From positions 1 to 38,938 of IMG/VR virus record IMGVR_UViG_3300033076_001279: 38,938 nucleotides of DNA, one strand, 5' to 3'. Below the pieces are notes generated by a model. It saw only the letters and a program-made list of their open reading frames with translations, made no database searches and was not told the DNA's origin. Positions 1 to 38,938 of the stretch are shown here, piece after piece. This DNA comes from a virus (Duplodnaviria > Caudoviricetes). Every line of letters starts with the position of its first letter. The first letter of the stretch is position 1. Made by a program: the position numbers and the translations under genes.

Positions 1-69
1 GATGGCTACGAAAGGGCTTAGATTATTTGAAAGAATAGTTTAAGCCTTTTCTTTTTAATAGCGTTGGAA
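1..69. repeat. attC-like site 1 (partial, right part only)
   Basis: GATGGCTACG...AGCCTTTTCTTTTTAA-TAGC-GTTGGAA; closely resembles site 2. Confidence 0.8.
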
Positions 70-186
70 CTCAAAGATATTTTTTTACCCACGCTAATAT
101 GATGTCCGCAAGCCAAAAAAGTTGATTATTTACTTTCGGTTTTGATTGCTTTTGATTATATTGTATCATAATCAAATGAGTTTAAA

Positions 187-873
187 ATGCCAATAAGTAA
201 AGTAGAAAATATTGATTGCATCGAGGGAATGAAGCAATTTCCTGATAAATTTTTTGATTTGGCTATTTGCGACCCACCTTATGGAAACGAATCTTCCTAT
301 AACAATAGAAGGAAGTTAAAACCATATGAAAATATTGAGCCTTTACCAGAATATTACTATGAATTATTTAGGATTTCAAAACATCAAATTATTTGGGGTG
401 CAAATTATCTAAGAAATTATGATTTAAAAGGAGGCGGTATTGTTTGGAATAAATTAGGGACTTATACAGAACATAGAAAGCAAGCTCCTACTATTGGGGA
501 CTGTGAATATGCTTTTACCTCTAAAACAAATAATATAAAAATGTTTTCTTATGCTTGGATGGGAAATGTTTTAGGGAATAATTATACAATAAATCCACCT
601 GAATCAAAAGAAAAATTTCATCCAAGTCAAAAACCTATTGCATTATATATTTGGCTACTCGAAAACTACGCAAAGCAAGGCGATAAAATACTTGACACAC
701 ATTTAGGCAGTCAATCGAGCCGAATAGCAGCATACAAGAAAGGCTTTGATTTTTGGGGCTTTGAAATCGACAAAGATTATTTCGAGGAAGGGAACGAAAG
801 GTTTGAAAAATCAATAGCGATGCCTTTGTTTGATAGTATCCGTCCGCAAATGCAGCAACTATCCCTTGTATAA
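187..873 (+). CDS. N6-adenine/N4-cytosine DNA methyltransferase (beta class)
   Basis: DPPY catalytic motif N-terminal, HPSQKP, LDTHLGSQSS SAM-binding motif C-terminal. Confidence 0.92.
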   Translation: MPISKVENIDCIEGMKQFPDKFFDLAICDPPYGNESSYNNRRKLKPYENIEPLPEYYYELFRISKHQIIWGANYLRNYDLKGGGIVWNKLGTYTEHRKQAPTIGDCEYAFTSKTNNIKMFSYAWMGNVLGNNYTINPPESKEKFHPSQKPIALYIWLLENYAKQGDKILDTHLGSQSSRIAAYKKGFDFWGFEIDKDYFEEGNERFEKSIAMPLFDSIRPQMQQLSLV

Positions 874-875
874 AC

Positions 876-963
876 TTCCAACTTTCAGCAAAATGATGGC
901 TACGGAATAAGGCTAAAACTTTGAAATATAGGTTTTAGCCTTTTCTTTTTGCGAACGTTGGAT
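876..963. repeat. attC-like site 2
   Basis: TTCCAAC-TTTCA-GCAAAATG...CTTTTTGC-GAAC-GTTGGAT. Confidence 0.85.
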
Positions 964-1074
964 GTTAAAGGTGCTTGCATTTTTCGCATTAACTTTGTCG
1001 CAAAATAAGTAAGAAAACCTATGGAAATGTCAGAAAAATTTACTATTTTGTAGTATAAATCAAACACTACAAAA

Positions 1075-1914
1075 ATGGTAATTTTAGATTTATTTAGTGG
1101 TATTGGTGGATTTTCAAAAGGGTTAATTGATGCAGGATTTCAATTTGAAACACATTATTTTTCTGAAATTGATAAACACGCAATAGCTAATTATTCTTAC
1201 AATTTTAAAAATTCACATTATGTCGGTTCAGTTACAAATGTTCGAGGAACAGAACTCAAAAGACCAAATATTATCACTTTCGGAAGCCCTTGCCAAGACT
1301 TCTCAATGGCTGGAAAACGATTGGGGATGGAAGGAGAAAGAAGTAGCCTTATCCTTGAAGCAATTAGACTTATATCCGAGTGCAGACCTGACGTATTTAT
1401 CTGGGAAAATGTTAAAGGAACATTCTCCTCAAATGATGGTGCAGACTTTATCGCAATACTCCAAGCCTTTGCCAACATTGGGGGTTATAGAATTGAATGG
1501 CAATTGCTTAATACAGCATGGGTTTTACCCCAAAATAGAGAGCGATTGTACCTTGTTGGACATCTTGCAGGAAGAAGTAAGCTCGGAGTATTTCCTATCG
1601 GAACAGAAAATAGAAAATATCAAGAATTGGAAATCGAGAGAAAACCCACTTTCTCATGTCTTACACGTAGGGGAGCAGGAGAATACCATTCAGGTATGCA
1701 ACTTATTAGAATAAAGAACAAATTAAGAGTTCCAACTGAAATTGAATGTGAAAAAGCACAAGGATTTCCAGAGAATTGGACTAAATATGGCATTAATAGT
1801 GCAGGTATTTATGAAATACCAAGAGTAGAAAGATATAAAATGTTAGGAAATTCAGTAACTACCAAAATAGTAGAATTAGTTGGAAACGGAATTAGAAATT
1901 GCCTTGAAACCTAA
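1075..1914 (+). CDS. C5-cytosine DNA methyltransferase (large/alpha polypeptide)
   Basis: DLFSGIGG (motif I), GSPCQDFS (IV), WENVKG (VI), PQNRERLY (VIII), LGNSV (X). Confidence 0.95.
   Translation: MVILDLFSGIGGFSKGLIDAGFQFETHYFSEIDKHAIANYSYNFKNSHYVGSVTNVRGTELKRPNIITFGSPCQDFSMAGKRLGMEGERSSLILEAIRLISECRPDVFIWENVKGTFSSNDGADFIAILQAFANIGGYRIEWQLLNTAWVLPQNRERLYLVGHLAGRSKLGVFPIGTENRKYQELEIERKPTFSCLTRRGAGEYHSGMQLIRIKNKLRVPTEIECEKAQGFPENWTKYGINSAGIYEIPRVERYKMLGNSVTTKIVELVGNGIRNCLET
1220..1714 (+). CDS. Nested +1-frame ORF, probable beta polypeptide of the C5 methyltransferase
   Basis: 164 codons open in AT-rich DNA inside the MTase gene; CTLLDILQEEVSSEYFLS resembles the motif of M.EcoHK31I-type alternative-frame subunits. 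Confidence 0.65.
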   Translation: MSVQLQMFEEQNSKDQILSLSEALAKTSQWLENDWGWKEKEVALSLKQLDLYPSADLTYLSGKMLKEHSPQMMVQTLSQYSKPLPTLGVIELNGNCLIQHGFYPKIESDCTLLDILQEEVSSEYFLSEQKIENIKNWKSRENPLSHVLHVGEQENTIQVCNLLE

Positions 1915-1915
1915 C

Positions 1916-2002
1916 TTCCAACTTATAGCAAAAAGATGGCTTATACCATATTTCCGAAATCAGGAAAATGGTTTTAGCCTTTACTTTTTGCGTGCGTTGG
2001 AC
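1916..2002. repeat. attC-like site 3
   Basis: TTCCAAC-TTATA-GCAAAAAG...CTTTTTGC-GTGC-GTTGGAC. Confidence 0.85.
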
Positions 2003-2090
2003 GACAAATTAACTAAAAATACCTCGCTAATTTCTTGTCCAAGTGATGCAAATTGACTAAATTATGGCATAATCAAACAATAAAAATAAA

Positions 2091-2276
2091 ATGACTGGAA
2101 AAGAAATGATAAAAATAATTCAAGATAATGGTCTTGAAGACTTTAAAATAAAAATCAATAAACTTGTTTCAAGAGATGGGAATTGGAGCTTTAATTTAGA
2201 GTCTTATTTTTTAGACTCAATGGTTGATATAGGGCATTCTGATAGAACGGTAACTTTTGATTTAATTGACGATTAA
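2091..2276 (+). CDS. Hypothetical cassette protein
   Basis: ORF with A-rich leader inside cassette 3. Confidence 0.7.
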   Translation: MTGKEMIKIIQDNGLEDFKIKINKLVSRDGNWSFNLESYFLDSMVDIGHSDRTVTFDLIDD

Positions 2277-2277
2277 T

Positions 2278-2454
2278 ATGGAAAACAGAAAATTTACAGA
2301 AGAAGACTTTCACGCTGTTGGATGGCATTTTGAAGCGTATTTTATAGAAGTTCTCAATAAAGAATATGATTTAGAAGACGCAATAAACGATTTACGTGGG
2401 CTTATTGGCTCAAAGTATGATTCAAGGGTAATTCAAGAATCATCGAATAAGTAA
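2278..2454 (+). CDS. Hypothetical cassette protein (start probably ATG 2278)
   Basis: Starts 1 nt after the previous stop; its own stop abuts site 4. Confidence 0.7.
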   Translation: MENRKFTEEDFHAVGWHFEAYFIEVLNKEYDLEDAINDLRGLIGSKYDSRVIQESSNK

Positions 2455-2455
2455 C

Positions 2456-2542
2456 TTCCAACTTTTAGTAAAAAGATGCTTGGTTTTAAAGTATCTTTTT
2501 GCTAAATTAGGTATTAACATTTACTTTTTACGAGCGTTGGAA
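2456..2542. repeat. attC-like site 4
   Basis: TTCCAAC-TTTTA-GTAAAAAG...CTTTTTAC-GAGC-GTTGGAA. Confidence 0.85.
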
Positions 2543-2600
2543 TCAAAGCACTTTGAAGTATCAAAGTGAGTTGATGTCCGCAAACCAATAAAATAAAAAT

Positions 2601-2927
2601 ATGCTAATTAAAGAAGCTACTTACGAAAATGTAATGGTTGAAACAAGAAAAAGAGTTTCAGATGATGTTTTTGGCTGTGATTGTTGTGAAAAAGAAATAA
2701 AAGAGTATCCAAACGAAAACAGTAGATTAGAGCTTACTGTTTTTAAAGGCAATTCTGATGATGCTGAACACTTGCACTTTTGCTCGTGGGAGTGTGTTTT
2801 GAAACAACTTCCTAAAATAAAAACTGATTATTTTATAAGTTTACCCTTTGTTTATTTTGATGAAAAATGTGAAGATAAACGTTCAGGAAATGAATTAATA
2901 TCTTTGCTGAAAAGATTGAAGATATAG
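2601..2927 (+). CDS. Hypothetical cassette protein, possible Zn-binding (CDCC...FCSWEC)
   Basis: Paired Cys motifs reminiscent of TRASH/treble-clef fingers; fills cassette 4. Confidence 0.7.
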   Translation: MLIKEATYENVMVETRKRVSDDVFGCDCCEKEIKEYPNENSRLELTVFKGNSDDAEHLHFCSWECVLKQLPKIKTDYFISLPFVYFDEKCEDKRSGNELISLLKRLKI

Positions 2928-2930
2928 CAC

Positions 2931-3009
2931 TTCCAACGCCTTGATGGGCGATGGAATAGTGATTTTTGACAAAAAATAGGCTTTCATTTACGCCTATCTA
3001 ATGTTGGAA
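2931..3009. repeat. attC-like site 5
   Basis: TTCCAAC-GCCTT-GATGGGCG...CGCCTATC-TAAT-GTTGGAA. Confidence 0.85.
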
Positions 3010-3057
3010 CTCAAACAAATTTTAAATTACAAAAGCGACTGAAAGTCGCACGACATT

Positions 3058-3300
3058 ATGAAAGAACAAGTTTTTTTTTGTGCCGCACATGGAAAAAATG
3101 TTGGCGAAAGAGTAACAATAACAGGCTCATCAGTTAATCAAGTAAAGGGTAAGCTACGAAAAAGTTTTATAGAAGGAATTATCATTGGCGGTGGCACAAT
3201 TTGGGAAAAACACGAGAAGGGTCTTGGATGGCATAAAAGCGTTGCAAGTTGGAGTCCACGCACAAAAACAACTCTGAAAGCTAAGCATATTTTAGAGTAG
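3058..3300 (+). CDS. Hypothetical basic cassette protein
   Basis: ORF fills cassette 5. Confidence 0.7.
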   Translation: MKEQVFFCAAHGKNVGERVTITGSSVNQVKGKLRKSFIEGIIIGGGTIWEKHEKGLGWHKSVASWSPRTKTTLKAKHILE

Positions 3301-3305
3301 AAAAT

Positions 3306-3392
3306 TTCCAACCAAAAGCATTATGAAGATTGGAAAATAATGCTTATATTAGATAAGAAATAACAAACTTTTACTTAATGCGAGCGTTGGAA
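3306..3392. repeat. attC-like site 6
   Basis: TTCCAAC-CAAAA-GCATTATG...CTTAATGC-GAGC-GTTGGAA. Confidence 0.85.
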
Positions 3393-3451
3393 TCAAAGCA
3401 CTTTGAAGTATCAGAGTGAGTTGATGTCCGCAAACCAAAACAAATAAAACT

Positions 3452-3811
3452 ATGAGAATAGAATTAGAGAAAATACCTGTAAAAAATGAGGGAGGAACAA
3501 ACAATATAACTTGTAATTTGATTGAATTAGGGTTAGAAAGTTTAAACCCATATTTTCATGTTACAATCATTTTAAATAACGAATTATATCAAACAATTAG
3601 AAAAGTGTATCCGCCAGATGATTATATAATTGGAGCAAATGAAGTTGATTTCTTTGTTAATAATGATATTCTAAATAACTGTTTAGTTGTAATTCAAAAT
3701 TTGAACTTACCACACAAAATTGAAAATTTTGTTACAACTTATAAAATATTTGAGTTTGGAGATATTACGGAGTTTATTAAAACAATAGGGGTAAAAGCAA
3801 CAAAAATATAA
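3452..3811 (+). CDS. Hypothetical cassette protein
   Basis: ORF fills cassette 6. Confidence 0.75.
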   Translation: MRIELEKIPVKNEGGTNNITCNLIELGLESLNPYFHVTIILNNELYQTIRKVYPPDDYIIGANEVDFFVNNDILNNCLVVIQNLNLPHKIENFVTTYKIFEFGDITEFIKTIGVKATKI

Positions 3812-3834
3812 TAAATGTTTAGCGAATAAGCAAC

Positions 3835-3920
3835 TTCCAACTAAAAGCATTGAGAAGTTTTGAAATAAAATATCTTTTTGCTATATTGTTTAATACATTT
3901 TCTTAATGCGAGCGTTGGAA
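3835..3920. repeat. attC-like site 7
   Basis: TTCCAAC-TAAAA-GCATTGAG...CTTAATGC-GAGC-GTTGGAA. Confidence 0.85.
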
Positions 3921-3962
3921 TACAAATATTTTTAAATTATTTTTCTAATATGATGTCGCAAA

Positions 3963-4394
3963 ATGAATATACTTAACAGATTACCTAAATGGCAAATTGA
4001 AAAGGTGCTTAATCAGCCAAATTGTGATATAGATTTGGATTTTTTAGGATTTTTAGATATTTATGAAACGCTATCAAAAATAATTCCTAAATATTTCACA
4101 GTTGTTGATTTAGGGTGTGCATACAATCCGCAGTGTTTCTTTTTTGAAGAACATAAATCATATTTGGCTGTTGATATATCTGATTGCGTGAAATTTCAAG
4201 CAAAAAATTGTGAAATTTTTCAAAAAAGCATAAGTGAATTTATTAATGAAAATTTAAGTAATTTGAATTTAGAAGAAACATTTGCTATATGCAGTTATGT
4301 GCCATCTTGGGGTGGAGATAATGGAAAAATAGCAAGAGATACATTTAAAAATGTTTTTGTATATTATCCATCATCAACTCGTGAAATATCGTAG
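3963..4394 (+). CDS. Small SAM-dependent methyltransferase-fold protein
   Basis: VVDLGCAY (motif I-like) followed by YLAVDIS (motif II-like). Confidence 0.6.
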   Translation: MNILNRLPKWQIEKVLNQPNCDIDLDFLGFLDIYETLSKIIPKYFTVVDLGCAYNPQCFFFEEHKSYLAVDISDCVKFQAKNCEIFQKSISEFINENLSNLNLEETFAICSYVPSWGGDNGKIARDTFKNVFVYYPSSTREIS

Positions 4395-4403
4395 AATAAG
4401 CAC

Positions 4404-4489
4404 TTCCAACCAAATTGATTCTGATGGCTTGGTAGTGATTTATGATTTGAAAAAAAAGTTTTAGCCTTTTCAGAATCATGACGTTGGAA
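4404..4489. repeat. attC-like site 8
   Basis: TTCCAAC-CAAAT-TGATTCTG...CAGAATCA-TGAC-GTTGGAA. Confidence 0.85.
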
Positions 4490-4605
4490 GGCAAGGGAAT
4501 TTCTTTACTCCAACGCTGTATAAATGTCGCCAAATAAATTTATGTAAATGCTTGACTATTAGGTGATTAATTAGTATTTTTAGGTATTACTAAATTTAAT
4601 TTTAA

Positions 4606-5298
4606 ATGATAAAATCTAATAATCTACTGCATGGAGATTGCTTTTTAGCAATAAAAGAAATAGAAGACAATAGTGTTGATTTAATTGTTACTGACCCCCC
4701 ATACGGAATAAACTTTACCAAAGGTTATAAAAGTGGCTCAACAGAATTAGTTCATGGTGATGATGGGTTTTCGGTAATGGTTTTTGTTGATGAGTTGATG
4801 AAAGAGTTTAAAAGGGTTTTAAGACCTGATAGTGCAATTTATATTTTTACACGTTTTGACGTAATGCCGTATTGGTGGTTAAAAATAAAGAATTATTTTG
4901 ACACAAAAAATCAAATAGTATGGTTTAAAGGCGGCGGTGGAATGGGAGATTTGACTGGAAATTTTTCTTTTAATTATGAAAGTATAATGTTTGCTACAAA
5001 TGGAAAACATAAAATAAGAGGGAAAAGAGATGGTTCAGTTTGGCAAATTGGCAAATGCAAGCAAGAATACCATGAAACACAAAAACCCGTTGAATTAATT
5101 GAAAAAATCATAAAACATAGCACAGACGAAGGAATGACAGTCTTTGACCCCTTTATGGGAAGCGGCACAACTGGGGTAGCTTGCAAAAATTTGAATAGGA
5201 ATTTTATTGGAATTGAAATGATAGAATCTAATTTTAATATTGCAAAAAAAAGAATAGAATCTCATTGTCCGCAAGTAAATTTATTGTCCCTTGTGTAA
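4606..5298 (+). CDS. N6-adenine/N4-cytosine DNA methyltransferase (beta class)
   Basis: VTDPPY, HETQKP, FDPFMGSGTTG. Confidence 0.95.
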   Translation: MIKSNNLLHGDCFLAIKEIEDNSVDLIVTDPPYGINFTKGYKSGSTELVHGDDGFSVMVFVDELMKEFKRVLRPDSAIYIFTRFDVMPYWWLKIKNYFDTKNQIVWFKGGGGMGDLTGNFSFNYESIMFATNGKHKIRGKRDGSVWQIGKCKQEYHETQKPVELIEKIIKHSTDEGMTVFDPFMGSGTTGVACKNLNRNFIGIEMIESNFNIAKKRIESHCPQVNLLSLV

Positions 5299-5300
5299 AC

Positions 5301-5388
5301 TTCCAACTAAAAGCATTGAGATGGTTGGGTTTTAGAGTTAATTTATTGATTTACAATTACTTACCTTTTCTTAATGCGGATGTTGGAA
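5301..5388. repeat. attC-like site 9
   Basis: TTCCAAC-TAAAA-GCATTGAG...CTTAATGC-GGAT-GTTGGAA. Confidence 0.85.
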
Positions 5389-5476
5389 CGCTAAGGAGTT
5401 AGAAAAAACCTCGCTAATTTCTTGTCCAAGTGATAAAAATTGACTAAATTATTAGCATAATTCAAACACAAAAACT

Positions 5477-5779
5477 ATGGAAATCAATCATGCCCCTCAA
5501 ATTGTTTCATTTGCTCATATTGACCCTAATACAAAAGATTTATATACTTATTACTTCCAAATAACCAAAGGGAAAATATGGCTTCATTCTATTGATAAAT
5601 GGGAGAAAAATGGAAGGACTGGAAATGGTTACAAACATGAAGAAGTTTTTCATTTTGAATATAAAAATACAATTACAAATTATGAAACAGGGGAATTTGA
5701 ACAGCCCAAAGTTCCTGAATATTTAATGAATAATGCAAAACTATTTTTTATTGGTTACGTGGCAAATAATTGTATATAA
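5477..5779 (+). CDS. Hypothetical cassette protein
   Basis: ORF with AAAACTATG start context in cassette 9. Confidence 0.75.
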   Translation: MEINHAPQIVSFAHIDPNTKDLYTYYFQITKGKIWLHSIDKWEKNGRTGNGYKHEEVFHFEYKNTITNYETGEFEQPKVPEYLMNNAKLFFIGYVANNCI

Positions 5780-5787
5780 ATAAACCT

Positions 5788-6006
5788 ATGAGTAAAATGA
5801 AAAAAGTAATTTGCTATATATTTGGGCATAAAGAAGAAGATTTTACAGATTCTGGCTATATGATTTGTAAAAGATGTAAATGTCACGAATATTATGACGG
5901 TTGGGGAATTGGTATTTTTGCATCTATTTGGCAAAGAATAAAACGAAAAATTGGAAGGATAAAAGATGAAATTTACTATCAAATTTTTAATGAATTGCCG
6001 TTTTAA
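5788..6006 (+). CDS. Small hypothetical protein with C..GH...CxRC motif (DUF1660-like); start uncertain
   Basis: ICYIFGHK...ICKRC pattern typical of small phage Zn-binding proteins; stop just before site 10. Confidence 0.65.
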   Translation: MSKMKKVICYIFGHKEEDFTDSGYMICKRCKCHEYYDGWGIGIFASIWQRIKRKIGRIKDEIYYQIFNELPF

Positions 6007-6010
6007 GCAC

Positions 6011-6089
6011 TTCCAACTTTGGCATTTGAGATGCCGAAGTATTTTAAAACTTAAAATTGCGTAGCGTTTGCTTAAATGCTATGTTGGAA
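6011..6089. repeat. attC-like site 10
   Basis: TTCCAAC-TTTGG-CATTTGAG...CTTAAATG-CTAT-GTTGGAA. Confidence 0.85.
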
Positions 6090-6148
6090 GATGCGGAACT
6101 TTCAAATCCGCTCTAATCAAATGTCTCTGAGAACCAAAAAACAAGAAT

Positions 6149-6373
6149 ATGATTTTATTGCAATTTGATAGAATGAAAGAATTTGTTGAAACAATGCAGC
6201 CTTTCATTGAAAAATATAGAAGCGAATATCATAAAAACGTATTTGAAATTGATAGCACTGTTTGCTACGATGAATATGAATTGTACGAATATTTACATAA
6301 TAATGGAGAAATTACAGAAAAATTTGAATTTGCTTTACATTTTTCTGAATTTGGGCATATAATCAAACATTAG
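6149..6373 (+). CDS. Hypothetical cassette protein
   Basis: ORF fills cassette 10. Confidence 0.7.
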   Translation: MILLQFDRMKEFVETMQPFIEKYRSEYHKNVFEIDSTVCYDEYELYEYLHNNGEITEKFEFALHFSEFGHIIKH

Positions 6374-6385
6374 CGTAGAACAATT

Positions 6386-6473
6386 TTCCAACTCATAGTA
6401 ATGAGATGGCTTTGGTTAAAAGTTGAATTAAATGGTTGTGGTTTCGAGCCTTTTCTTATTACGGATGTTGGAA
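6386..6473. repeat. attC-like site 11
   Basis: TTCCAAC-TCATA-GTAATGAG...CTTATTAC-GGAT-GTTGGAA. Confidence 0.85.
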
Positions 6474-6664
6474 CACAAGTTTAGATTGCAAACTCGCTGA
6501 ACAAACGTCCAAGTGATGAATGAGTCACAAACCAAACAAACTGCCGAGTAGTAAAATTATTGAAATGTTGGTCGCATTCTTTGTAACTACTCGCCAATTT
6601 GCTGTCGGTTTGATGCTTGCACCCTTTGAATAAGTCCAAAGGGAGTGCTTGTCGAAATGATTTG
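6474..6664. ncRNA. ORF-less structured cassette, candidate ncRNA
   Basis: No + strand ORF; nested stems CAAACC/GGTTTG and CGAGTAGT/ACTACTCG, then hairpin GCACCCTTTG/CAAAGGGAGTGC. Confidence 0.45.
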
Positions 6665-6715
6665 TCCAACTACATAAACGACAATCTAAATTAGTTAAAA
6701 CTTTTTAAATTGTCA
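6665..6715 (-). other. Candidate attI-like primary recombination site
   Basis: Array ends with a lone TCCAAC core lacking a GTTGGA partner, followed by TACATAAAC and the inverted repeat GACAATCTAAA...TTTAAATTGTC. Confidence 0.5.
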
Positions 6716-6718
6716 AGT

Positions 6719-7234
6719 TTATGTTTTCTTTTTTTTCAGACTCGAATAGGGTTGATTTACTTTTAGATTCATTAGAGAATCTTGTAAAAATTGCACTTTA
6801 CATTTTAGCTTTTGCTGCTCTACTTTCAGTTTCTGTATTTCTTCTGAGTTTTGCTTGGTGGATAATACATTTTGTAAAAACGTGTATATAGCAATAAATG
6901 AACCTATGAGTATTGTAATATTTTTAACCCAAAACTCAAAGGTTATTTTAAATTTTTCCCATCCTTCTTTTAAATATTTTTCCGACTTATATGAGTTTAC
7001 CCCTTCTTCTAAAAGTCCAATTGTATCTGGATTGTTGTTTCTTTTATATAAGACTTCGCTTGAAGATTCTAATTCATAAACAGTTTTTTTTATTAAAGGT
7101 ACTTCATAAGACAAGATATTTGATAGCTCTTTCAATGAATATAAATCATGGCTATTAAATCGCTCTTTTGGCATTTTCCAAAGAGCTTCTAATATTTTGT
7201 GTTTAATTCTATATTTTTGAGGTATTATTTTCAT
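6719..7234 (-). CDS. Hypothetical protein: wHTH-like N-terminus, one TM segment, coiled coil (start probably ATG 7234)
   Basis: Hydrophobic ITILIGSFIAIYTFL followed by a heptad-rich tail. Confidence 0.65.
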   Translation of the reverse strand: MKIIPQKYRIKHKILEALWKMPKERFNSHDLYSLKELSNILSYEVPLIKKTVYELESSSEVLYKRNNNPDTIGLLEEGVNSYKSEKYLKEGWEKFKITFEFWVKNITILIGSFIAIYTFLQNVLSTKQNSEEIQKLKVEQQKLKCKVQFLQDSLMNLKVNQPYSSLKKKKT

Positions 7235-7256
7235 TTTTCCAACGTACAAAAACACT

Positions 7257-7289
7257 ACTTCGGTTAAATGTATTAACCGAAGTTTTTTT
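7257..7289. terminator. Intrinsic terminator, probably bidirectional
   Basis: ACTTCGGTTAA-ATGTA-TTAACCGAAGT with T-rich tails on both strands. Confidence 0.75.
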
Positions 7290-7666
7290 TATAGCTGACT
7301 TTCAAAATAAAATACTCCATTGAACGGCTTATCAACTGTTATATCAAATAGTTGAGAAATTTTTTTCATGTATTCAATGCGTTTCAATGCTTTATTAGAT
7401 TTGGTTGTTTTGGGCAATTTAGCCAGCCGAATGTGAAAAGTTTTCATATATTCTCGAAACTGTTCTAAATCTTTTCCTCGTTTGTAATGATTGATAATTG
7501 AAATACATGGGATAAGATTATAAAACTCATCAGCATTGCCTTCTACATATTTTTGCTTAAATCTATATTGTGGCATGACGTGGTCTATTTGCCAATCATT
7601 GCCTAAAATTTGCCCTGTGTAAGCACAACGACCGCCAAATCTTGTTTGTACTTGTTCTCTTTTCAT
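7289..7666 (-). CDS. HNH endonuclease-family protein
   Basis: GRCAYTG...WQIDHVMP...NLIPC...INHYK. Confidence 0.85.
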   Translation of the reverse strand: MKREQVQTRFGGRCAYTGQILGNDWQIDHVMPQYRFKQKYVEGNADEFYNLIPCISIINHYKRGKDLEQFREYMKTFHIRLAKLPKTTKSNKALKRIEYMKKISQLFDITVDKPFNGVFYFESQL

Positions 7667-7702
7667 TTAGCTTCTATTTTTTGTACTTCAATAGAATTAA
7701 TA

Positions 7703-7915
7703 TTAATCGCATAATTCAAGTTCACTCGCTTTAAATTCATTACATACGCCATCTTTTATTTTTAAACCCCATTGAAACTCTCCATCTTCAATGTCTTTTA
7801 TACTTTTTGCCCTCCATAATTCACATGGCTGTTTAAATATATGACTACAATTCACAGAATCTTTTGCTTTAATTTTTGTGCCAATTGGCAATTTTAATAA
7901 ATCAGTAGGTTTCAT
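7703..7915 (-). CDS. Hypothetical protein
   Basis: ORF in operon context. Confidence 0.65.
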   Translation of the reverse strand: MKPTDLLKLPIGTKIKAKDSVNCSHIFKQPCELWRAKSIKDIEDGEFQWGLKIKDGVCNEFKASELELCD

Positions 7916-7936
7916 ATTATTTTTTATTTCAAATTA

Positions 7937-8842
7937 TTAAAAATCTTTCAATAAATCAATATTAACGTTTCTTTTTGCACACTTGGTATAAAGCATGGTA
8001 GTTGATAAGTCAGCGTGTCCGAGAAGTTCGCTAATCTTATCAATTGATGTATCATTGTTAAGTAAATGAGTAGCAAATGAATGTCGAAGCGTGTGGATAC
8101 ACCCTTTTGATTTTATCCCAGCCTTTTCTTTTGCTTTGTGAAATTCTGTTTCGGCTGTTCTTCCTGATAATTGCTTACCTTGCTTGTTTTGAAAAATAAA
8201 CTCATTTGATTCAACTTCTATTCCTTCAAAATACTTTCTATAATAATCAGTAAGTGTTGAGAGAACTAATTTCGGAAGCATTACATAACGCTGTTTACAG
8301 CCTTTGCCTTTCTGAACAAACAACTTCATATCGTGTCGGTTAATATCGCAAAATCTTAAATTACATATTTCGTTTAATCTTAAACCGCAACCGTAGGCAA
8401 ACATAAAGAATAGCATATATTTTAGGCTCTCTGTTGTGTTCAAAATATTTTTCACATCATCTACACTAAAAATCTTTGGTAATGGCTTAGAACGTATAAA
8501 ATTAAGTCTTTTCAAGAACTCATTATTTTCTCCGATAAAATCAAGATACTTAATTAATGCTGCTCTGATTTGAAATTTACGTGCCGAGCCTAAATCTTTT
8601 TTTAGCCAATAATATGCGTTTACAGACGTTGAATTTATTTGAGCGTTGTGTTTATCGTTTACAAATAGATAAACGTTTTTGATGTCAGAAATATATGTTG
8701 TAATAGTTTTCTGTGAATGATTGCAAATGACTAAACGCTTTTCAAACTGTTCAATATTGTGTTTTTGTTCATCAGTCAAATTTTTTAGTTTTTTAACTGG
8801 GCTTTTTTTGTACGATGGTATGATGGCTGTGTATGTGTACAT
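7937..8842 (-). CDS. Tyrosine recombinase, IntI/XerD-like; candidate cassette integrase
   Basis: LPKIFS, YGCGLRLNE (R), GKGCKQR (K), HTLRHSFATHLL (HxxR), LLGH, TTMLY (Y); short SAM-like N-terminus; no IntI-specific insertion. Confidence 0.92.
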   Translation of the reverse strand: MYTYTAIIPSYKKSPVKKLKNLTDEQKHNIEQFEKRLVICNHSQKTITTYISDIKNVYLFVNDKHNAQINSTSVNAYYWLKKDLGSARKFQIRAALIKYLDFIGENNEFLKRLNFIRSKPLPKIFSVDDVKNILNTTESLKYMLFFMFAYGCGLRLNEICNLRFCDINRHDMKLFVQKGKGCKQRYVMLPKLVLSTLTDYYRKYFEGIEVESNEFIFQNKQGKQLSGRTAETEFHKAKEKAGIKSKGCIHTLRHSFATHLLNNDTSIDKISELLGHADLSTTMLYTKCAKRNVNIDLLKDF

Positions 8843-8862
8843 AATTTTAAAATTTTAGGTAC

Positions 8863-8893
8863 AAAAAAAGAGGGCAACAAAATTGCTACCCTC
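8863..8893 (-). terminator. Intrinsic terminator just upstream of the recombinase gene
   Basis: Minus strand GAGGGTAGC-AATTTT-GTTGCCCTC-TTTTTTT. Confidence 0.75.
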
Positions 8894-8920
8894 CTACTCA
8901 CTTGTTTTGGGTGTACGAGT

Positions 8921-9148
8921 TTATAGTGTTTTGACAAATTTATTTAATGAACTTTCCCAGCTTTTTGCATTAAAATTATCCGCATAGGAGCATGAAGTTA
9001 CTAAATTGCTATGAATTTTTTGCCTTCTGAAAAAAGTTTTGCCTTTGTACTCTATTTTTTGAATTTCATAGTGGCAAAAACTTAAACCACCTATTGGTTT
9101 TTTATCAATCTTCCCTAAGTTTTCAATAATTTTTATTTTTTCTCTCAT
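8921..9148 (-). CDS. Hypothetical protein
   Basis: Tightly coupled ORF in the early operon. Confidence 0.7.
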   Translation of the reverse strand: MREKIKIIENLGKIDKKPIGGLSFCHYEIQKIEYKGKTFFRRQKIHSNLVTSCSYADNFNAKSWESSLNKFVKTL

Positions 9149-9381
9149 ATTTTATGCAATTGGTAAAAATGTGTATTCTCTGTTTTCCACTGCTCTATTT
9201 TTTCAGCAACCTTGTTTGGGTGTATTTTAGTTGTGTACTGTACTTGATTTTTAGGTTGCACAACAAACTCTATCAAGTGTGAAGTATCAGGTGTTTTATA
9301 ATTATTAAGTTTCTGCTTGCCTATTAAATCGGGCTTGTAGTTTGTTTCTAACCTTTCTTTTTGCCCTCGTTGTTTTGCCAT
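9145..9381 (-). CDS. Hypothetical protein
   Basis: Tightly coupled ORF. Confidence 0.7.
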   Translation of the reverse strand: MAKQRGQKERLETNYKPDLIGKQKLNNYKTPDTSHLIEFVVQPKNQVQYTTKIHPNKVAEKIEQWKTENTHFYQLHKI

Positions 9382-9606
9382 TTACACTGCATTTATAATA
9401 AATTGTGAAAAAATACGTAATTGTTTTTTGCTATTTTTTGTAACCAAATTTGGCTGTCTTTCAAATACAGAAACCAAACCTAATCCGTTTACAAAATCAT
9501 TATTTACAAACGTTAGTAATTCAGTTTTTCTATATTTGTTTGCAACCAAAATTTCAACATTATACTGTTTATTTGGTTTGAGTTGGTAAGATAATTCTGG
9601 CTTCAT
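9382..9606 (-). CDS. Hypothetical protein
   Basis: Tightly coupled ORF. Confidence 0.7.
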   Translation of the reverse strand: MKPELSYQLKPNKQYNVEILVANKYRKTELLTFVNNDFVNGLGLVSVFERQPNLVTKNSKKQLRIFSQFIINAV

Positions 9607-9865
9607 GTTCTAATAATTGGTTTAAAATTTCTAAATATCCTACTGTATCAGTTAGGTTATCTCTTTTGTGTTTATACTTTTCACGTCCTAATTTGACTGA
9701 TAATAGGACTTTGCAAATTTCTGATGGCTTTAAAGTTATTCCGTACATAACACGTAGTATGATTGAATAATCATCAAATGCAACAATTGGATTATTATAT
9801 TGAACATCTCTATCGCCATTTACTATTTTATCAGCTTCTAATAGTATTGATGTTTGTTCTTGCAT
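9569..9865 (-). CDS. DUF6378-like phage protein
   Basis: ILLEADKIVNGDRDVQY...KLGR...DNLTDTVGY pattern. Confidence 0.75.
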   Translation of the reverse strand: MQEQTSILLEADKIVNGDRDVQYNNPIVAFDDYSIILRVMYGITLKPSEICKVLLSVKLGREKYKHKRDNLTDTVGYLEILNQLLEHEARIILPTQTK

Positions 9866-10577
9866 CTAAGTAATTTTTGTTTTTCTCAATCATATCATAA
9901 TAATCTTTTGCAAGTTTGTTTAGATATTTTCGAGCTTCATTAACTGAATTTTGAATTGTTAGTATGCAAGTTTCAAATAATTCAACATCAAATACTTTAA
10001 AACGGCATTCCATTGGAATATGAGAATAAGAAAATTTTTTTCTTAGTTCTTCAAGTGCTTCTTGATACTCTACTGAATCATTTGAAGTAAATTTACCTTG
10101 CCAAAAAAGTTTCATTTCTTCATCAGCAAGTAATGTATCAGGCATATCTGCAAGAATATAAAATAAACGCCCTTTTTCTCGATTGAGAAGGTACAAATAC
10201 CCTTTTATTTGCCATTCATATTCCCATGTTAAATGAGCCTTCCCAAACGTAAATAAATCGTAAGCATTTTTGATGTCATAAACGTAATCTTCCATAATTA
10301 CGTCAGGTTCGCCATGGATAAATTCATTTCTAAAACGCTCACGATTTTTTGCTACAAATCGGTCTTTGTAAAAGATTTTTTGAAGGAAATCACGACCGTC
10401 TTGTTCACAAATAATACCTTTTTCAAAGTATTTTGAAATAATTTCTTTTTGTATTTTATAGATTTCTCCTACAAACAAATCATTCAAATATGTTTTATTT
10501 TGGTCAGTTAATTTTCCTGATTTAGAAACTATTTTACCAAGAGCCGAACATCGAAATTGATAATTATCAAAAATCAT
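9831..10577 (-). CDS. YqaJ/lambda-type recombination exonuclease
   Basis: FRCSALG, KGIICE, GEPD...DIK, YEWQIKGY; adjacent to RecT. Confidence 0.85.
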   Translation of the reverse strand: MIFDNYQFRCSALGKIVSKSGKLTDQNKTYLNDLFVGEIYKIQKEIISKYFEKGIICEQDGRDFLQKIFYKDRFVAKNRERFRNEFIHGEPDVIMEDYVYDIKNAYDLFTFGKAHLTWEYEWQIKGYLYLLNREKGRLFYILADMPDTLLADEEMKLFWQGKFTSNDSVEYQEALEELRKKFSYSHIPMECRFKVFDVELFETCILTIQNSVNEARKYLNKLAKDYYDMIEKNKNYLDARTNINTIRS

Positions 10578-11449
10578 AATTGAGAAAGTTTTGCTTCATA
10601 GTAATCACGTAATCCCAAATCATTAACACTGCCTTCAACATCTTTTAATTGTTGCTTTGTAGTGGCTGAATCAATAAATTGTTTACAACGCTCAATTTCT
10701 TTTTCGAGTGCAATTTCATCGGCTGTTACTGGCTCATTGTCAATATATTGCACTTCAAGTGTATCACTATTTTTTATTACAGATTGGTCTGCAATTACAG
10801 CAGTTTGCATATCGACTGAAAGAATACCAAATTTTGATAATAGCATTTTTATTACTGTTTTCTTTGCCATGCTATCAAAATCATCTTGCCATAAACCAAA
10901 GCCCTTTTTATAAGTTTGGGAAAACTTTTTGCCATGTTTTTCAAGTTCTTCTTTACTCATGTATATAGACTTTCTGAATCCGTTTAAAAGTTCTATATAT
11001 GCTACGTAGCCAATAACTGGCCGTTCAATTCTTTCATTACGTGGTTGCCATTTGAATTGAATTTCTCCACTTAAAAAGTCCTCATATTCAATTTCATCTT
11101 CACGTACATCTGTAACGTTTATTGTTTTGTACTGTCCAGAACGTTGAGCAAGTTGAATGTAGGCTTTGTAGCCTAATTGAAATTGTGCCAATTGTTTACC
11201 ACTTTTTCGGTCATTAAAAGGCACTATATAAGCCAAACCGAGCGAGTTATTCAATGGTAAATCAAGAGTAGCAGCAGTAGCGGCAGCAGTATAAACACTT
11301 TGTGGGTCTGCGTTTCGTAGCATATCATTTGAATTAACAATCTGTAAAACAGACGTAATAAATGATGCAGAACGTTTTCCAAGTAGTTGTCCGAACTTTT
11401 CTTGTACATTTTTTTGTGCAAAAAAGTCTTTTGTAGTAAGATTTGACAT
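10574..11449 (-). CDS. recT: RecT-family single-strand annealing protein
   Basis: LGLAYIVPF, AQFQLGYKAYIQLAQRSGQY, MAKKTVIKMLLSK. Confidence 0.93.
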   Translation of the reverse strand: MSNLTTKDFFAQKNVQEKFGQLLGKRSASFITSVLQIVNSNDMLRNADPQSVYTAAATAATLDLPLNNSLGLAYIVPFNDRKSGKQLAQFQLGYKAYIQLAQRSGQYKTINVTDVREDEIEYEDFLSGEIQFKWQPRNERIERPVIGYVAYIELLNGFRKSIYMSKEELEKHGKKFSQTYKKGFGLWQDDFDSMAKKTVIKMLLSKFGILSVDMQTAVIADQSVIKNSDTLEVQYIDNEPVTADEIALEKEIERCKQFIDSATTKQQLKDVEGSVNDLGLRDYYEAKLSQL

Positions 11450-17288: not shown

Positions 17289-18632
17289 ATGAAAACACTT
17301 GCAATCATTCGAAAAATGACAGCTATCTCTGTAACCTATCGTTTCCGCCGCTCTCGTGGCAAAAATGAAAATCAAGGGCATATTCAAGTTTGCATCAAAA
17401 TTAAAGACTTTGATTATTCCCCCCTTACTTACAAACACAATGTAGAAAAATCGGTATGGGATGCAATTAATGAACCTAAAAAAGCAAAATCGAAAGAAAT
17501 TCAATTCAAAAGTATTGAGCTAAAAAAGGAGCTTGACGAATTTGTAAATACCATTCGTGCGACTTATGTTTTACTTTCTAATCAGGAACAAGAAATAATA
17601 ACAGCACATGACCTTGTTTATTATAACACAAAAACATCCGAAATTCAAAAGAAAAAAATTGAAGTTAGTAATTTATCATCTTTGATTGATGATTTTATTG
17701 AAAAAAATAAAGAAAAAGTTTTAGATAAAATTGTTCCTTTTAAGATTAAAAATAAGATTACAAAAGGAACATTCAGAAACTACAAAAAATACCAGCAAAA
17801 AATAAATGATTATCTATCTTATTCAAAACAAAAATATGTTTCAATACATAATGTAGATTTATTATTTATTGAAGGATTAGAAAAGTATTTAGACGCTAAA
17901 TATAGCACTTCATACACTGCAAAAATTATAAAATTTGTAATACAAATAATGGATTATGCAGTTAATTGTCGATATGTAAAAGTTAATTACTTGAACAATT
18001 ATAAAACTTTTTCAGGCATTCCAAGTGAGCCTTTTAATATTCCAGAAGAGGATATTAATAAGATAGAATTTTATCAATTTTATGATTCAGTAGAAAGGAG
18101 GTACGTTAATGCTTGGTTATTAGCTCGTGAACTTGCTTTACACTTTATTGATTATGCAGATTTGAAAAATGAAAACATTAATTTGAAAGATTTTTATGAA
18201 ATTGAAAATATGCAAAAAGTTTTTCATTTCGACCAAATACCAATCAAGAAAAAACAAAAAGTTTATGCTTTTCAAAAGGTTAGAGTAAAATCAAAAATAT
18301 TTCAAAACTCAATATTTACACCTCGTGCCGTAAGAATGTTTGAATATTTTGATAAAAATGTATTAATGATGCCTTTGAATGGCAAATATTCATCAATAAC
18401 CTCATTTTCTAAAATATTACGCCCAGCATTGCAAAAGGCACTTAATAGTGATGTTAATTATGTATTTTCTCATGCAAGGGATTCGATGATTTATCATCTT
18501 CTTCGTATGAAATCGCACGACCGTTTTATCATGGCAATAGCAGGGTGGCGTTCACTCGATGAATTACACAGATACGCTCGTGTTGATAATCAAATTCTTT
18601 TTGATTCAAAATATTACTCAAAAAGTGCTTGA
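17289..18632 (+). CDS. int: Phage integrase (Bacteroidota arm-binding + SAM-like + catalytic domains), divergent active site
   Basis: N-terminal beta-rich arm-binding-like region, ITKGTFRNY, C-terminal SHARDS..AGW..RY. Confidence 0.8.
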   Translation: MKTLAIIRKMTAISVTYRFRRSRGKNENQGHIQVCIKIKDFDYSPLTYKHNVEKSVWDAINEPKKAKSKEIQFKSIELKKELDEFVNTIRATYVLLSNQEQEIITAHDLVYYNTKTSEIQKKKIEVSNLSSLIDDFIEKNKEKVLDKIVPFKIKNKITKGTFRNYKKYQQKINDYLSYSKQKYVSIHNVDLLFIEGLEKYLDAKYSTSYTAKIIKFVIQIMDYAVNCRYVKVNYLNNYKTFSGIPSEPFNIPEEDINKIEFYQFYDSVERRYVNAWLLARELALHFIDYADLKNENINLKDFYEIENMQKVFHFDQIPIKKKQKVYAFQKVRVKSKIFQNSIFTPRAVRMFEYFDKNVLMMPLNGKYSSITSFSKILRPALQKALNSDVNYVFSHARDSMIYHLLRMKSHDRFIMAIAGWRSLDELHRYARVDNQILFDSKYYSKSA

Positions 18633-36773: not shown

Positions 36774-38938
36774 TAACAAAGAAAAACGGCTCAACAGAAC
36801 CAATATTTCAAAATAGCACGGTTTCTGTAATAACCAAAGCAGAGCAAAAAAAGGCTTTACTTGGGGAAGATGTTATTAATATTACTGTTGAATCGGCATT
36901 TACAAGAAATTTTGAAATAGGCGATAAAATAAAGCCTTTTGATGGTAATACTTACAAAATAAATCAATTACCACGTGTTACAAAAATATCAGAAAATCAA
37001 TACCAATATGATTTAGTTTTTGAAGGTTTGCAATATGACCTTATTAGATGTGCATATAGGAATGAGGATGTATTAGCAGTAAGTACAAATAGCGAATTTT
37101 CATTAGTTGGTGATATTCAAATGTTTTTAGATTTGATTATCAATAATGCAAATCGTGTATTTGGAACTGGTGTATGGGAATTAGGCACAGTTCCAACTGG
37201 AACAGATACTAAAACACTTCAATTTAGCAATGAAAACTGTTTAACCGTTCTTCAAAGAATTTGCCAAGAATATAATTATCATTTTGTATTGAGAGAATCT
37301 ACAAATAAGATAATTATTGATATAAAGAGTAGTGGGACTGACTTAAACTATACTTTTAAGTACGGGAAAGGCAAAGGTTTATATCAACTTACACGTGAGA
37401 AAGTAGATTCAAAAAATATAATAAATACACTTTATGTTTATGGTTCTACTAAAAATATCCCTGCTGATTATAAGAACTATTCGCCACGTTTAAGACTTGG
37501 ATTGGCAATTTCAGAACCAGTTTTATCTGTAAATGATTCTGTAACAGCATTTGGCACATTTGAAGGGTCAGTAATATTTGAAGACGTATATCCTCATAGA
37601 GTTGGTACAGTTTCTACAATAGACACAAATAACCGTTATAAGTTTATTGATTCATCAATGGACTTTGATTTGAATGAGGTAGATGGAAGCAATAATACTA
37701 AATGGTTAATTAGTGGTGTTCCTGCAAAAATACATTTCAATACTGGCAATTTAGCTGGCTATGAATTTGAAATCGAACAATATACTCATTCTACAAAGAC
37801 TTTTATTATCAAGCCTATTAATGATAATAAGGGTTTGGAATTACCTTCAACTACTGAATCTGCATTTTTTATTGGTGTAGGTGATAAATATGTTATTGTG
37901 GATGTCGTTATGCCATCCACTTATGTTAGTGCGGCAGAAGCTGAATTAGAAGCTAAAGCAAATGAGTTTTTAGATAAAAACAAAAACCCTATTGTTCAAT
38001 ATTCGTTAAATATTGATAGTAATTACTTAAAATCTAATTCGGTAGGTCTAAATATTTTTGAAGTTGGCGATACAATCGAAATTATTGATTCTGAATTAAA
38101 TATCAATAATCGAATTGAAATTATTGGATTTAGTAGGGATATTTTAAAGCCTTACGAATATAGTTTAACAATTGGGGAATCAATTGAAAATGGTATAATT
38201 AGAACACTTACTAAAAACGCAGTTGATGTAAATAGGAAAATTAAGTTTGATACGCTTGATATTAAAGGTGGTACTAATCCGAGTATAATTAATCAAATCA
38301 ACTCACAAATTGATGTAACTTTTGGAAGTGAAAAGCCTATAAAAATTGGCAGAAAAACAGTAGATATTGAGTTTGGTAATTATGATTCTATAAACAAGTA
38401 TTTTGGTGAACAACGTTGGTATAATAACACTGGTCTTTTCTACTCAAAAATTAGCAATGAGGGTCTTGATAAAAACGTAGAGGTAAAAATACCTACAACA
38501 TTAGCATCGTTTACGGTTGCAAGTGTTGAAAACAGTTGGCAATTAGGCGGTAACACAGTAGGCTCTGAAAAGTCAATCGGAACTATTGATAATTATGATT
38601 TACCTATTATCCGCAATAACACACAGGTTGCAAAATTTGTGAGTGGAGGGTTACAACTACCTACTATATCTACACTTGGAACAACTCTATCGCAATTTGC
38701 TGTGATTGGAGCGAGTAATTTGATACAACAGCGTTCGATTTCAAATGTAAGGGCGGATTTATTTGGAGGTAGTTTTACATCAGGAAGTGTTATATTTTCA
38801 AATGGTACAACATTAGCTCAAAATAACTCACAATTATTTTGGGATAATACAAATAATAGATTTGGAATTGGAACAACTTCTCCTACTGAAAAACTTGATG
38901 TAAATGGTAGTATAAAAGTAGTAAATGGTGGTAAATTT
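36758..38938 (+). CDS. Tail tip/hub protein with fibre-like C-terminal region (truncated by window end)
   Basis: Not in the ORF track; ATG 36758 MEQILITKK...; frame open wherever checked through the end; YGKGKGLYQL, FEDVYP, FNTGNLAGYEF, then LFWDNTNNRFGIGTTSPTEKLDVNG. Confidence 0.85.
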   Translation, partial: MEQILITKKNGSTEPIFQNSTVSVITKAEQKKALLGEDVINITVESAFTRNFEIGDKIKPFDGNTYKINQLPRVTKISENQYQYDLVFEGLQYDLIRCAYRNEDVLAVSTNSEFSLVGDIQMFLDLIINNANRVFGTGVWELGTVPTGTDTKTLQFSNENCLTVLQRICQEYNYHFVLRESTNKIIIDIKSSGTDLNYTFKYGKGKGLYQLTREKVDSKNIINTLYVYGSTKNIPADYKNYSPRLRLGLAISEPVLSVNDSVTAFGTFEGSVIFEDVYPHRVGTVSTIDTNNRYKFIDSSMDFDLNEVDGSNNTKWLISGVPAKIHFNTGNLAGYEFEIEQYTHSTKTFIIKPINDNKGLELPSTTESAFFIGVGDKYVIVDVVMPSTYVSAAEAELEAKANEFLDKNKNPIVQYSLNIDSNYLKSNSVGLNIFEVGDTIEIIDSELNINNRIEIIGFSRDILKPYEYSLTIGESIENGIIRTLTKNAVDVNRKIKFDTLDIKGGTNPSIINQINSQIDVTFGSEKPIKIGRKTVDIEFGNYDSINKYFGEQRWYNNTGLFYSKISNEGLDKNVEVKIPTTLASFTVASVENSWQLGGNTVGSEKSIGTIDNYDLPIIRNNTQVAKFVSGGLQLPTISTLGTTLSQFAVIGASNLIQQRSISNVRADLFGGSFTSGSVIFSNGTTLAQNNSQLFWDNTNNRFGIGTTSPTEKLDVNGSIKVVNGGKF

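Follow-up and report, generated by a model that had tools for sequence, protein, structure and literature searches.

A putative integron-like cassette platform in a temperate phage, with related arrays in Bacteroidota chromosomes

The window analyzed here is the whole 38,938-nt stretch of IMG/VR record IMGVR_UViG_3300033076_001279 (Caudoviricetes), a 38.9-kb temperate-phage record that is approximately 60% complete. Its left part carries an array of small genes bounded by attC-like hairpin sites, followed by a bare copy of the site core and by the gene of a compact tyrosine recombinase. The best explanation, to which we assign a probability of about two in three, is that the phage uses its own recombinase to move these units in integron fashion, the sites being recognized as folded single strands. 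Judging from sequence, the system appears to work like an integron but falls outside the IntI family, whose defining domain was tested for and is absent; the activity of the recombinase on these sites is likewise predicted. The first-pass annotation of the window had proposed a non-canonical integron-like system belonging to the phage. The former is still the best reading, given the units running from core to core, the covarying arms and the failure of the enzyme in the IntI test. The latter has to be qualified: the sites, a docking core and the recombinase are present in the phage, but the system is shared with host chromosomes.

Hairpin sites and exchangeable units

The pattern TTCCAAC-N(55-85)-GTTGGA has 18 matches in the window, compared with a mean of 0.05 in shuffled sequences, and every match falls within 876-6473. 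These matches correspond to ten complete sites, eight of them matched on both strands; an eleventh is truncated where the contig begins. The ten sites were picked by their ends alone, not by arm pairing. All of them are 79-88 nt long, with a left spacer of 5 nt, a right spacer of 4 nt, the AWG element and 8-nt arms that end in G and are paired at 7-8 of 8 positions. The stop codons of the cassette genes lie 1-23 nt upstream of the TTCCAAC core. On remeasurement, the eleven sites of one architecture and the stop codon distances reported in the first-pass annotation were all recovered.

A structural model drawn from 50 sites consists of a core stem, a 5-by-4 internal loop, an 8-bp arm and an inner stem. 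Paired cells make up 89.1% in this model, compared with 70.8% for shuffled and 37-47% for slid sequences, and 12 of 15 inner pairs have changes on both sides; these values are biased toward the model, as arm pairing was one basis for choosing the sites from outside the window, and the same sequences served to derive the structure. Two positions of the 3' arm, a conserved C and an A/T, are unpaired on the + strand. Among 58 distinct arm pairs, G-T outnumbers A-C on the + strand by 21 to 3, and this strand folds better in nine of the ten window sites, by a small margin. Thus, the attC-type features found are an imperfect hairpin, AAC/GTT ends, an unpaired spacer and extrahelical bases. Two details of canonical attC sites are different, as the 8-nt arms pair without a bulge and there is no conserved extra G in L''. 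In gene orientation, the window sites run opposite to the RYYYAAC/GTTRRRY boxes. In integron attC sites, it is the bottom strand that folds; extrahelical bases are found on it, and cleavage separates the C and the A of the R' box (available part of PMC2727003). Because the geometry of the + strand matches that of this bottom strand, the + strand is the predicted working strand.

The extent of a unit can be seen in bacterial arrays of the same site family, which contain ten pairs of near-identical units. Nine of the ten (seven distinct cassettes) agree from core to core but not beyond; the tenth pair spans two genomes. In the nine pairs, the unit's own hairpin body (40/40 nt) and its last nucleotides (29-30/30) are shared, compared with 9-22/30 in the left flank and 18-25/40 in the next body. 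Therefore, a unit consists of a core, a hairpin body and cargo, and each hairpin body moves together with its right-hand cargo. The boundaries sit at one R-like box, both in the host pairs and in metagenome contigs; the exact boundary base within the 7-bp core is unplaceable because the core is invariant.

Altered contexts are also seen around the window units. Positions 3835-4402 alone recur, at 95% identity, inside a 1517-nt contig of an independent metagenome run, X2, in different surroundings. In the source-like run X1, a different 435 nt is found to the left of 876 at depth 33. Behind this branching is either population variation at site 1 or an assembly chimera formed with a rarer relative. 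In run X1, window positions 1-875 lie on the minor path (depth 5.3 vs. 33) and are possibly a chimeric join. Both in host arrays and in metagenome contigs matching the window, units reappear in other contexts with TTCCAAC at their ends. Run X1 contains additional site-bearing contigs at the depth of the phage; therefore, the array probably extends past the window.

Docking site, recombinase and host arrays

By its sequence features, a simple putative attI-type site is present near the recombinase (Table 1), and its left neighbors differ among relatives. Relatives in run X2 keep 7238-7309 and the recombinase at approximately 86-92% DNA identity, yet branch at the core: the contigs matching 7238-7309 begin at the core, and one left neighbor is an unrelated sequence. 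A contig from run X3 matches 7164-7243 exactly and then enters a full site body; thus, the cassette at the docking site also sits inside another array. In all four host genomes examined, a bare core lies approximately 490 nt away from the 3' end of the recombinase gene, and three of three metagenome contigs have a look-alike. The layout common to the window and the Emticicia arrays leads from the recombinase 3' end to the bare core and on to sites in the same orientation. A 20-mer from the docking site matched no viral record. The bare core (7237-7243), overlooked in the first-pass annotation, is 0.7 kb from the recombinase; the recombinase, placed there about 1.2 kb away, is actually 1.46 kb from the last full site. 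A terminator-like hairpin (7257-7283) stands directly before the bare core. A sigma-70 scan for a Pc-type promoter that would drive the cassettes from the docking site stayed near chance level (56 vs. 44), with a model unsuited to Bacteroidota.

The unit adjoining the docking site (6386-7243) is of host type, a likely capture from a host array. From the core onward, its segment 6386-6723 matches a Spirosomataceae chromosome over 339 nt with 92.9% identity. The scaffold there also adjoins a bare core but bears another gene, of 73 aa. This chromosomal locus (L256:7437-8110, G009:C1) is a one-cassette mini-array with a bare core and no adjacent recombinase; the same scaffold with a different gene bears on how cassettes are made.

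All catalytic residues of an intact R-K-HxxR-H-Y tyrosine recombinase, as annotated earlier, were located in the phage enzyme (R155, K180, H250, R253, H276, Y285; PF00589, 134 bits). The predicted fold is that of a tyrosine recombinase (predicted local distance difference test, 91.5), and the structures nearest to the model are XerA and IntI4 (2A3V). An I2-type additional domain is given as defining IntI (available part of PMC9668308). The segment in the I2 region has 63 aa in the phage enzyme, 58 in the host array enzymes and 99 in IntI2. The TIGR02249 score is 138.7 bits for the phage enzyme, 196 for the host enzyme and 410 for the IntI2 control (cut-off 265), and the XerC/XerD family scores of 149.8/142.7 bits are below the cut-offs of 335/330. 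In a quick tree, the backbone of which is open, the phage enzyme and three compact relatives form a group separate from both conserved host Xer-like groups and from the Emticicia array enzymes. Host array recombinases (L054:1492-2643) have an N-terminal extension of approximately 100 aa, with no Pfam match in the tested relatives, where the phage enzyme has only approximately 25 aa. This extension is a candidate stand-in for the I2 role.

A stricter site pattern matched eight viral contigs and 12 genomes, of which five and eight, respectively, contain true sites; three viral contigs and four genomes were dropped as chance matches lacking paired arms. The eight genomes are all named Emticicia, Arcicella, Spirosomataceae or Cytophagaceae. 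One Emticicia contig has 74 co-oriented sites by the site finder and 73 by covariance model R1. This model matched 8 of 61 genomes of that family, mostly with a single match each. Therefore, the core type is narrow, which points to an Emticicia-like host. R1 yielded nothing at E < 0.1 near the integrase of Polaribacter phage Leef_1 or at the IntI2 locus, the latter being a weak control.

In all four host genomes, the recombinase has 383-390 aa and faces the array in the same orientation as in the window. Its 3' end also faces the array at four other Bacteroidota loci. These are the four of 19 homologue loci that have longer AAC...GTT hairpin arrays on the enzyme 3' side (judged by repeats and by eye); the remaining 15 showed none. 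The strict geometry found 0 sites across the 19 loci, and R1 also missed the four arrays; both are therefore family-specific. A shared ORF (open reading frame) of approximately 70-80 aa lies between the docking site and the recombinase, converging on the latter, in two host contigs (G006:C2, ~38200-38470; G010:C9, ~7150-7370). The former contig also has a second long array (40000-80000) on the recombinase 5' side, past a 44-kb site-free gap. A motif close to CGCT-N6-9-GTCS, looked at in window positions 6474-6718, in the 40-110 nt after every site and in host tails, lies 15-45 nt beyond the right end of many sites (5/10 in the window, 8/13 in phage G001 and 45/138 in hosts, vs. 1/831 background windows) and repeats up to three times in host cassette tails.

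Phages G001-G005 hold 21, 7, 3, 9 and 5 sites, respectively; one minus-strand site in G001 is spurious. In phage arrays where no matching recombinase was seen, the final site is of a distinct type, longer (89-91 nt) and with a shared inner hairpin motif GAGC...AGCGA (L253:12498-12588, L251:7063-7152, L252:4513-4601, L124:14191-14281, L132:4062-4151, L148:8737-8826). It is followed by a short non-coding tail and may be a special terminal or docking unit. In IMG/VR, the one match obtained with P0121 as query is an unrelated integrase; a transposase-like gene comes next, and sites are absent. The terminase relatives G069 and G070, both fragments, had no match to the phage enzyme.

Phage and host cassettes differ in gene polarity. 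Genes against and with the phage orientation number 93/17 in G006, 48/6 in G007 and 21/4 in one G008 array, whereas the with/against counts are 10/0 in the window and 13/1 in G001. Host cassettes are of the normal integron type, with a gene, a tail and their own hairpin. In phage cassettes the gene is reversed and reads away from its own hairpin. Thus, the attC likeness noted earlier holds for the hairpin and ends, but the site polarity is the reverse of that implied, since the hairpin belongs to the right-hand gene. The reversal likely fits the cassettes to the phage's own rightward transcription.

A tentative scenario can be described. The + strand would fold and be the cut strand, as the attC bottom strand is; on the model of IntI, cleavage would separate the A and the C in the left core. 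Units would leave as circles and enter at 7237-7243, the single strands being supplied by phage replication. The recombinase gene would be turned on with the early RecT/exonuclease operon containing it, and the host-type cassette at the docking site would have been captured from a host array.

Competing explanations

Several observations weigh against movement of folded sites by the phage's own enzyme. The phage enzyme shares just 33-37% identity with the host array enzymes and does not branch as their sister in the quick tree; the domain with which IntI reads extrahelical bases is missing from it. Searches of IMG/VR with the protein, with its alignment and with P0002 found no close relative of the recombinase with DNA context. 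Complete phage G004 has nine sites and no tyrosine recombinase, so that the phage enzyme is unnecessary for holding an array, and complete phage G005 has five sites, while its only integrase (400 aa) belongs to another type. The mean advantage of the + strand is only approximately 1.3 kcal/mol, and several sites, folded alone, are weak or differently shaped (z from -0.7 to -7). There was no excised circle among the assembled contigs of the metagenome runs (contigs only). At the docking core, one X2 contig shares 9 nt on the left before diverging, and the depth of the X3 contig is only 2.5. The first-pass annotation had expected sites and enzyme to co-occur and named their independence as contrary evidence. 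This independence is seen in part, as the sites also occur in complete phage G004, which has no tyrosine recombinase.

One alternative, which we consider unlikely, is that the array is site-specific but served in trans by the chromosomal recombinase of the host, the phage enzyme being a passenger or, for example, a resolver of genome dimers. Complete phages with arrays and no such enzyme, the sharing of the site family with hosts, the host-type cassette, the separate clade of the phage enzyme and the 15 of 19 loci where the wider enzyme group has no nearby array are all consistent with it. However, the recombinase has the same position and orientation relative to the core and sites as in the host platforms, and the X2 relatives retain both the recombinase and the docking site though an intervening gene has been lost. 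The enzyme-less phage arrays, by contrast, end in a special full site and not in a bare core.

It is rather improbable that the recombinase is cognate but acts on double-stranded sites with two inverted pairs of binding sequences, the hairpin being a by-product of symmetry. The lack of the IntI insertion, the presence of XerA among the closest solved structures and the weak folding of some sites would fit such a mode. It leaves unexplained that the arms vary freely yet stay paired, since a sequence-reading protein would not need the pairing, and it does not account for the conserved unpaired bases and the one-strand G-T bias.

Very improbable is a role of the repeats as RNA signals (terminator or processing hairpins) with genes shuffled by RecT-type homologous recombination, which is suggested by the terminator-like scores of sites 0 and 1, the phage-encoded RecT and exonuclease and the T4 precedent discussed below (available part of PMC4122927) but is disfavored by breakpoints that fall in a 7-bp core although the adjacent bodies share only about half of their sequence, by sites that face against genes in bacteria and with genes in phages, by the bare core adjoining the recombinase and by an Rfam search of 1-9500 with nothing at gathering level.

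Cargo, known systems and significance

The array units hold 13 ORFs on the + strand and one on the - strand (Table 1). DNA methyltransferases account for 3 of the 13, and the remainder have no family over cut-off. The methyltransferase-bearing cargo likely serves against host restriction. Exonuclease and RecT-like genes (9831-11449) share a leftward operon with the recombinase. The gene at 17289, previously called a lysogeny integrase, does encode a tyrosine integrase (Pfam Phage_int_SAM_5, 31.4 bits, above cut-off); its lysogeny role is presumed because it adjoins a repressor-like gene. The presence of this second integrase counts in favor of a platform role for the compact recombinase.

Table 1. 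Features of the cassette array and neighboring genes in the window
Feature	Position	Strand	Remarks
Site 0, truncated at contig start	1..69	+	matching left part on run X1 contig
N6/N4 DNA methyltransferase gene	187..873	+	minority form in run X1, depth 5.3 vs. ~33
Site 1, attC-like hairpin, core 876-882	876..963	+	pattern, geometry, covariance model
C5 cytosine methyltransferase gene	1075..1914	+	family match
Site 2	1916..2002	+	pattern, geometry
Two small ORFs, 2091-2276 and 2278-2454	2091..2454	+	no known family
Site 3	2456..2542	+	pattern, geometry
Gene, 108 aa	2601..2927	+	no family over cut-off
Site 4	2931..3009	+	pattern, geometry
Gene, 80 aa	3058..3300	+	no family
Site 5	3306..3392	+	pattern, geometry
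Gene, 119 aa	3452..3811	+	no family
Whole unit: site 6, leader and 143-aa gene	3835..4403	+	same unit in other context
Site 6	3835..3920	+	pattern, geometry
Gene, 143 aa	3963..4394	+	weak methyltransferase-like match, below cut-off
Site 7	4404..4489	+	pattern, geometry
N6/N4 DNA methyltransferase gene	4606..5298	+	family match
Site 8	5301..5388	+	same type as commonest Emticicia chromosomal site
Two small ORFs, 5477-5779 and 5788-6006	5477..6006	+	5788-6006 DUF1660-like at cut-off
Site 9	6011..6089	+	pattern, geometry
Gene, 74 aa	6149..6373	+	ORF
Site 10	6386..6473	+	pattern, geometry; heads host-type cassette
Site 10 and ~245-nt non-coding tail of host-type cassette	6386..6718	+	
Host-type cassette gene, 171 aa from ATG 2 nt past core	6719..7234	-	reverse of every other cassette gene
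attI-like site: bare TTCCAAC core (7237-7243), 5-nt spacer, degenerate second box, no hairpin body	7237..7255	+	
11-bp hairpin, terminator-like on both strands	7257..7283	.	terminator scan
HNH endonuclease gene	7289..7666	-	51% homologue is cassette gene in phage G004
70-aa ORF	7703..7915	-	missing between HNH and recombinase in a relative (joint 7666-7928)
Compact 301-aa tyrosine recombinase, all catalytic residues present, IntI insertion lacking	7937..8842	-	
Second tyrosine integrase, 447 aa, probably lysogeny, outside platform	17289..18632	+	Phage_int_SAM_5

The system resembles integrons, sedentary chromosomal integrons especially, in its tyrosine recombinase, single simple docking site, arrays of one-gene units, one favored strand and boundary in one R-like box. 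In the usual integron layout, the integrase is transcribed away from the array, whereas here the recombinase points toward it. Other differences are the lack of the IntI-specific insertion, the phage location, the fixed TTCCAAC core, the 5/4 spacers (in hosts also 5/5 and 5/6) and the unpaired bases, which are A/T and C and not a conserved G. Host cassettes of this family have a 250-350-nt tail, and phage cassettes are gene-reversed. The AAC/GTT-ended imperfect hairpins with an unpaired central spacer and extrahelical bases on one arm are again shared with attC (available part of PMC2727003). The site clusters without matching enzyme in phages G001-G005 resemble clusters of attC lacking IntI (CALINs), but these sites are not standard attC, and the window has a recombinase and a docking site.

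Integration of CTX phage by XerCD (integrative mobile elements exploiting Xer, IMEX) also involves a folded single strand and an enzyme without the I2 domain (PMC4792948). As far as the available part of that source goes, its stem has no extrahelical bases, the enzyme is that of the host, and one site integrates a whole genome, whereas this phage has many sites with unpaired bases bounding single genes. The promoter early stem-loops (PeSL) of T4 are repeated stem-loops bounding exchangeable small phage genes; in the available part of PMC4122927 the exchange is ascribed to homologous recombination, with no site-specific recombinase or docking site. In the literature outside subscription papers and bioRxiv supplements, we found no account of the present system.

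A wider proposal, which we put forward at slightly less than even odds, is that Bacteroidota and their phages share a second, undescribed integron class, with an I2-less enzyme acting on folded sites with extrahelical bases, in which the phage has its own compact enzyme and docking site, flips the cassette genes to suit its transcription and, by way of a common core, trades cassettes with host super-arrays. Escudero et al. describe a chicken-and-egg problem of the I2 domain vs. extrahelical bases (available part of PMC4792948). The system described here has extrahelical bases without I2 and makes this question testable. With its small size of 301 aa and sites defined by structure, the recombinase could also serve as a tool. 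In a RefSeq survey, integrons were near-absent in Bacteroidetes, with one complete integron, in Salinibacter (available part of PMC9024848). Arrays of more than 70 units beside an enzyme rejected by IntI models mean that a large gene-trading system may go unseen in a major phylum. A phage platform with a host-type cassette at its docking site would provide a direct route of gene flow between phage and host.

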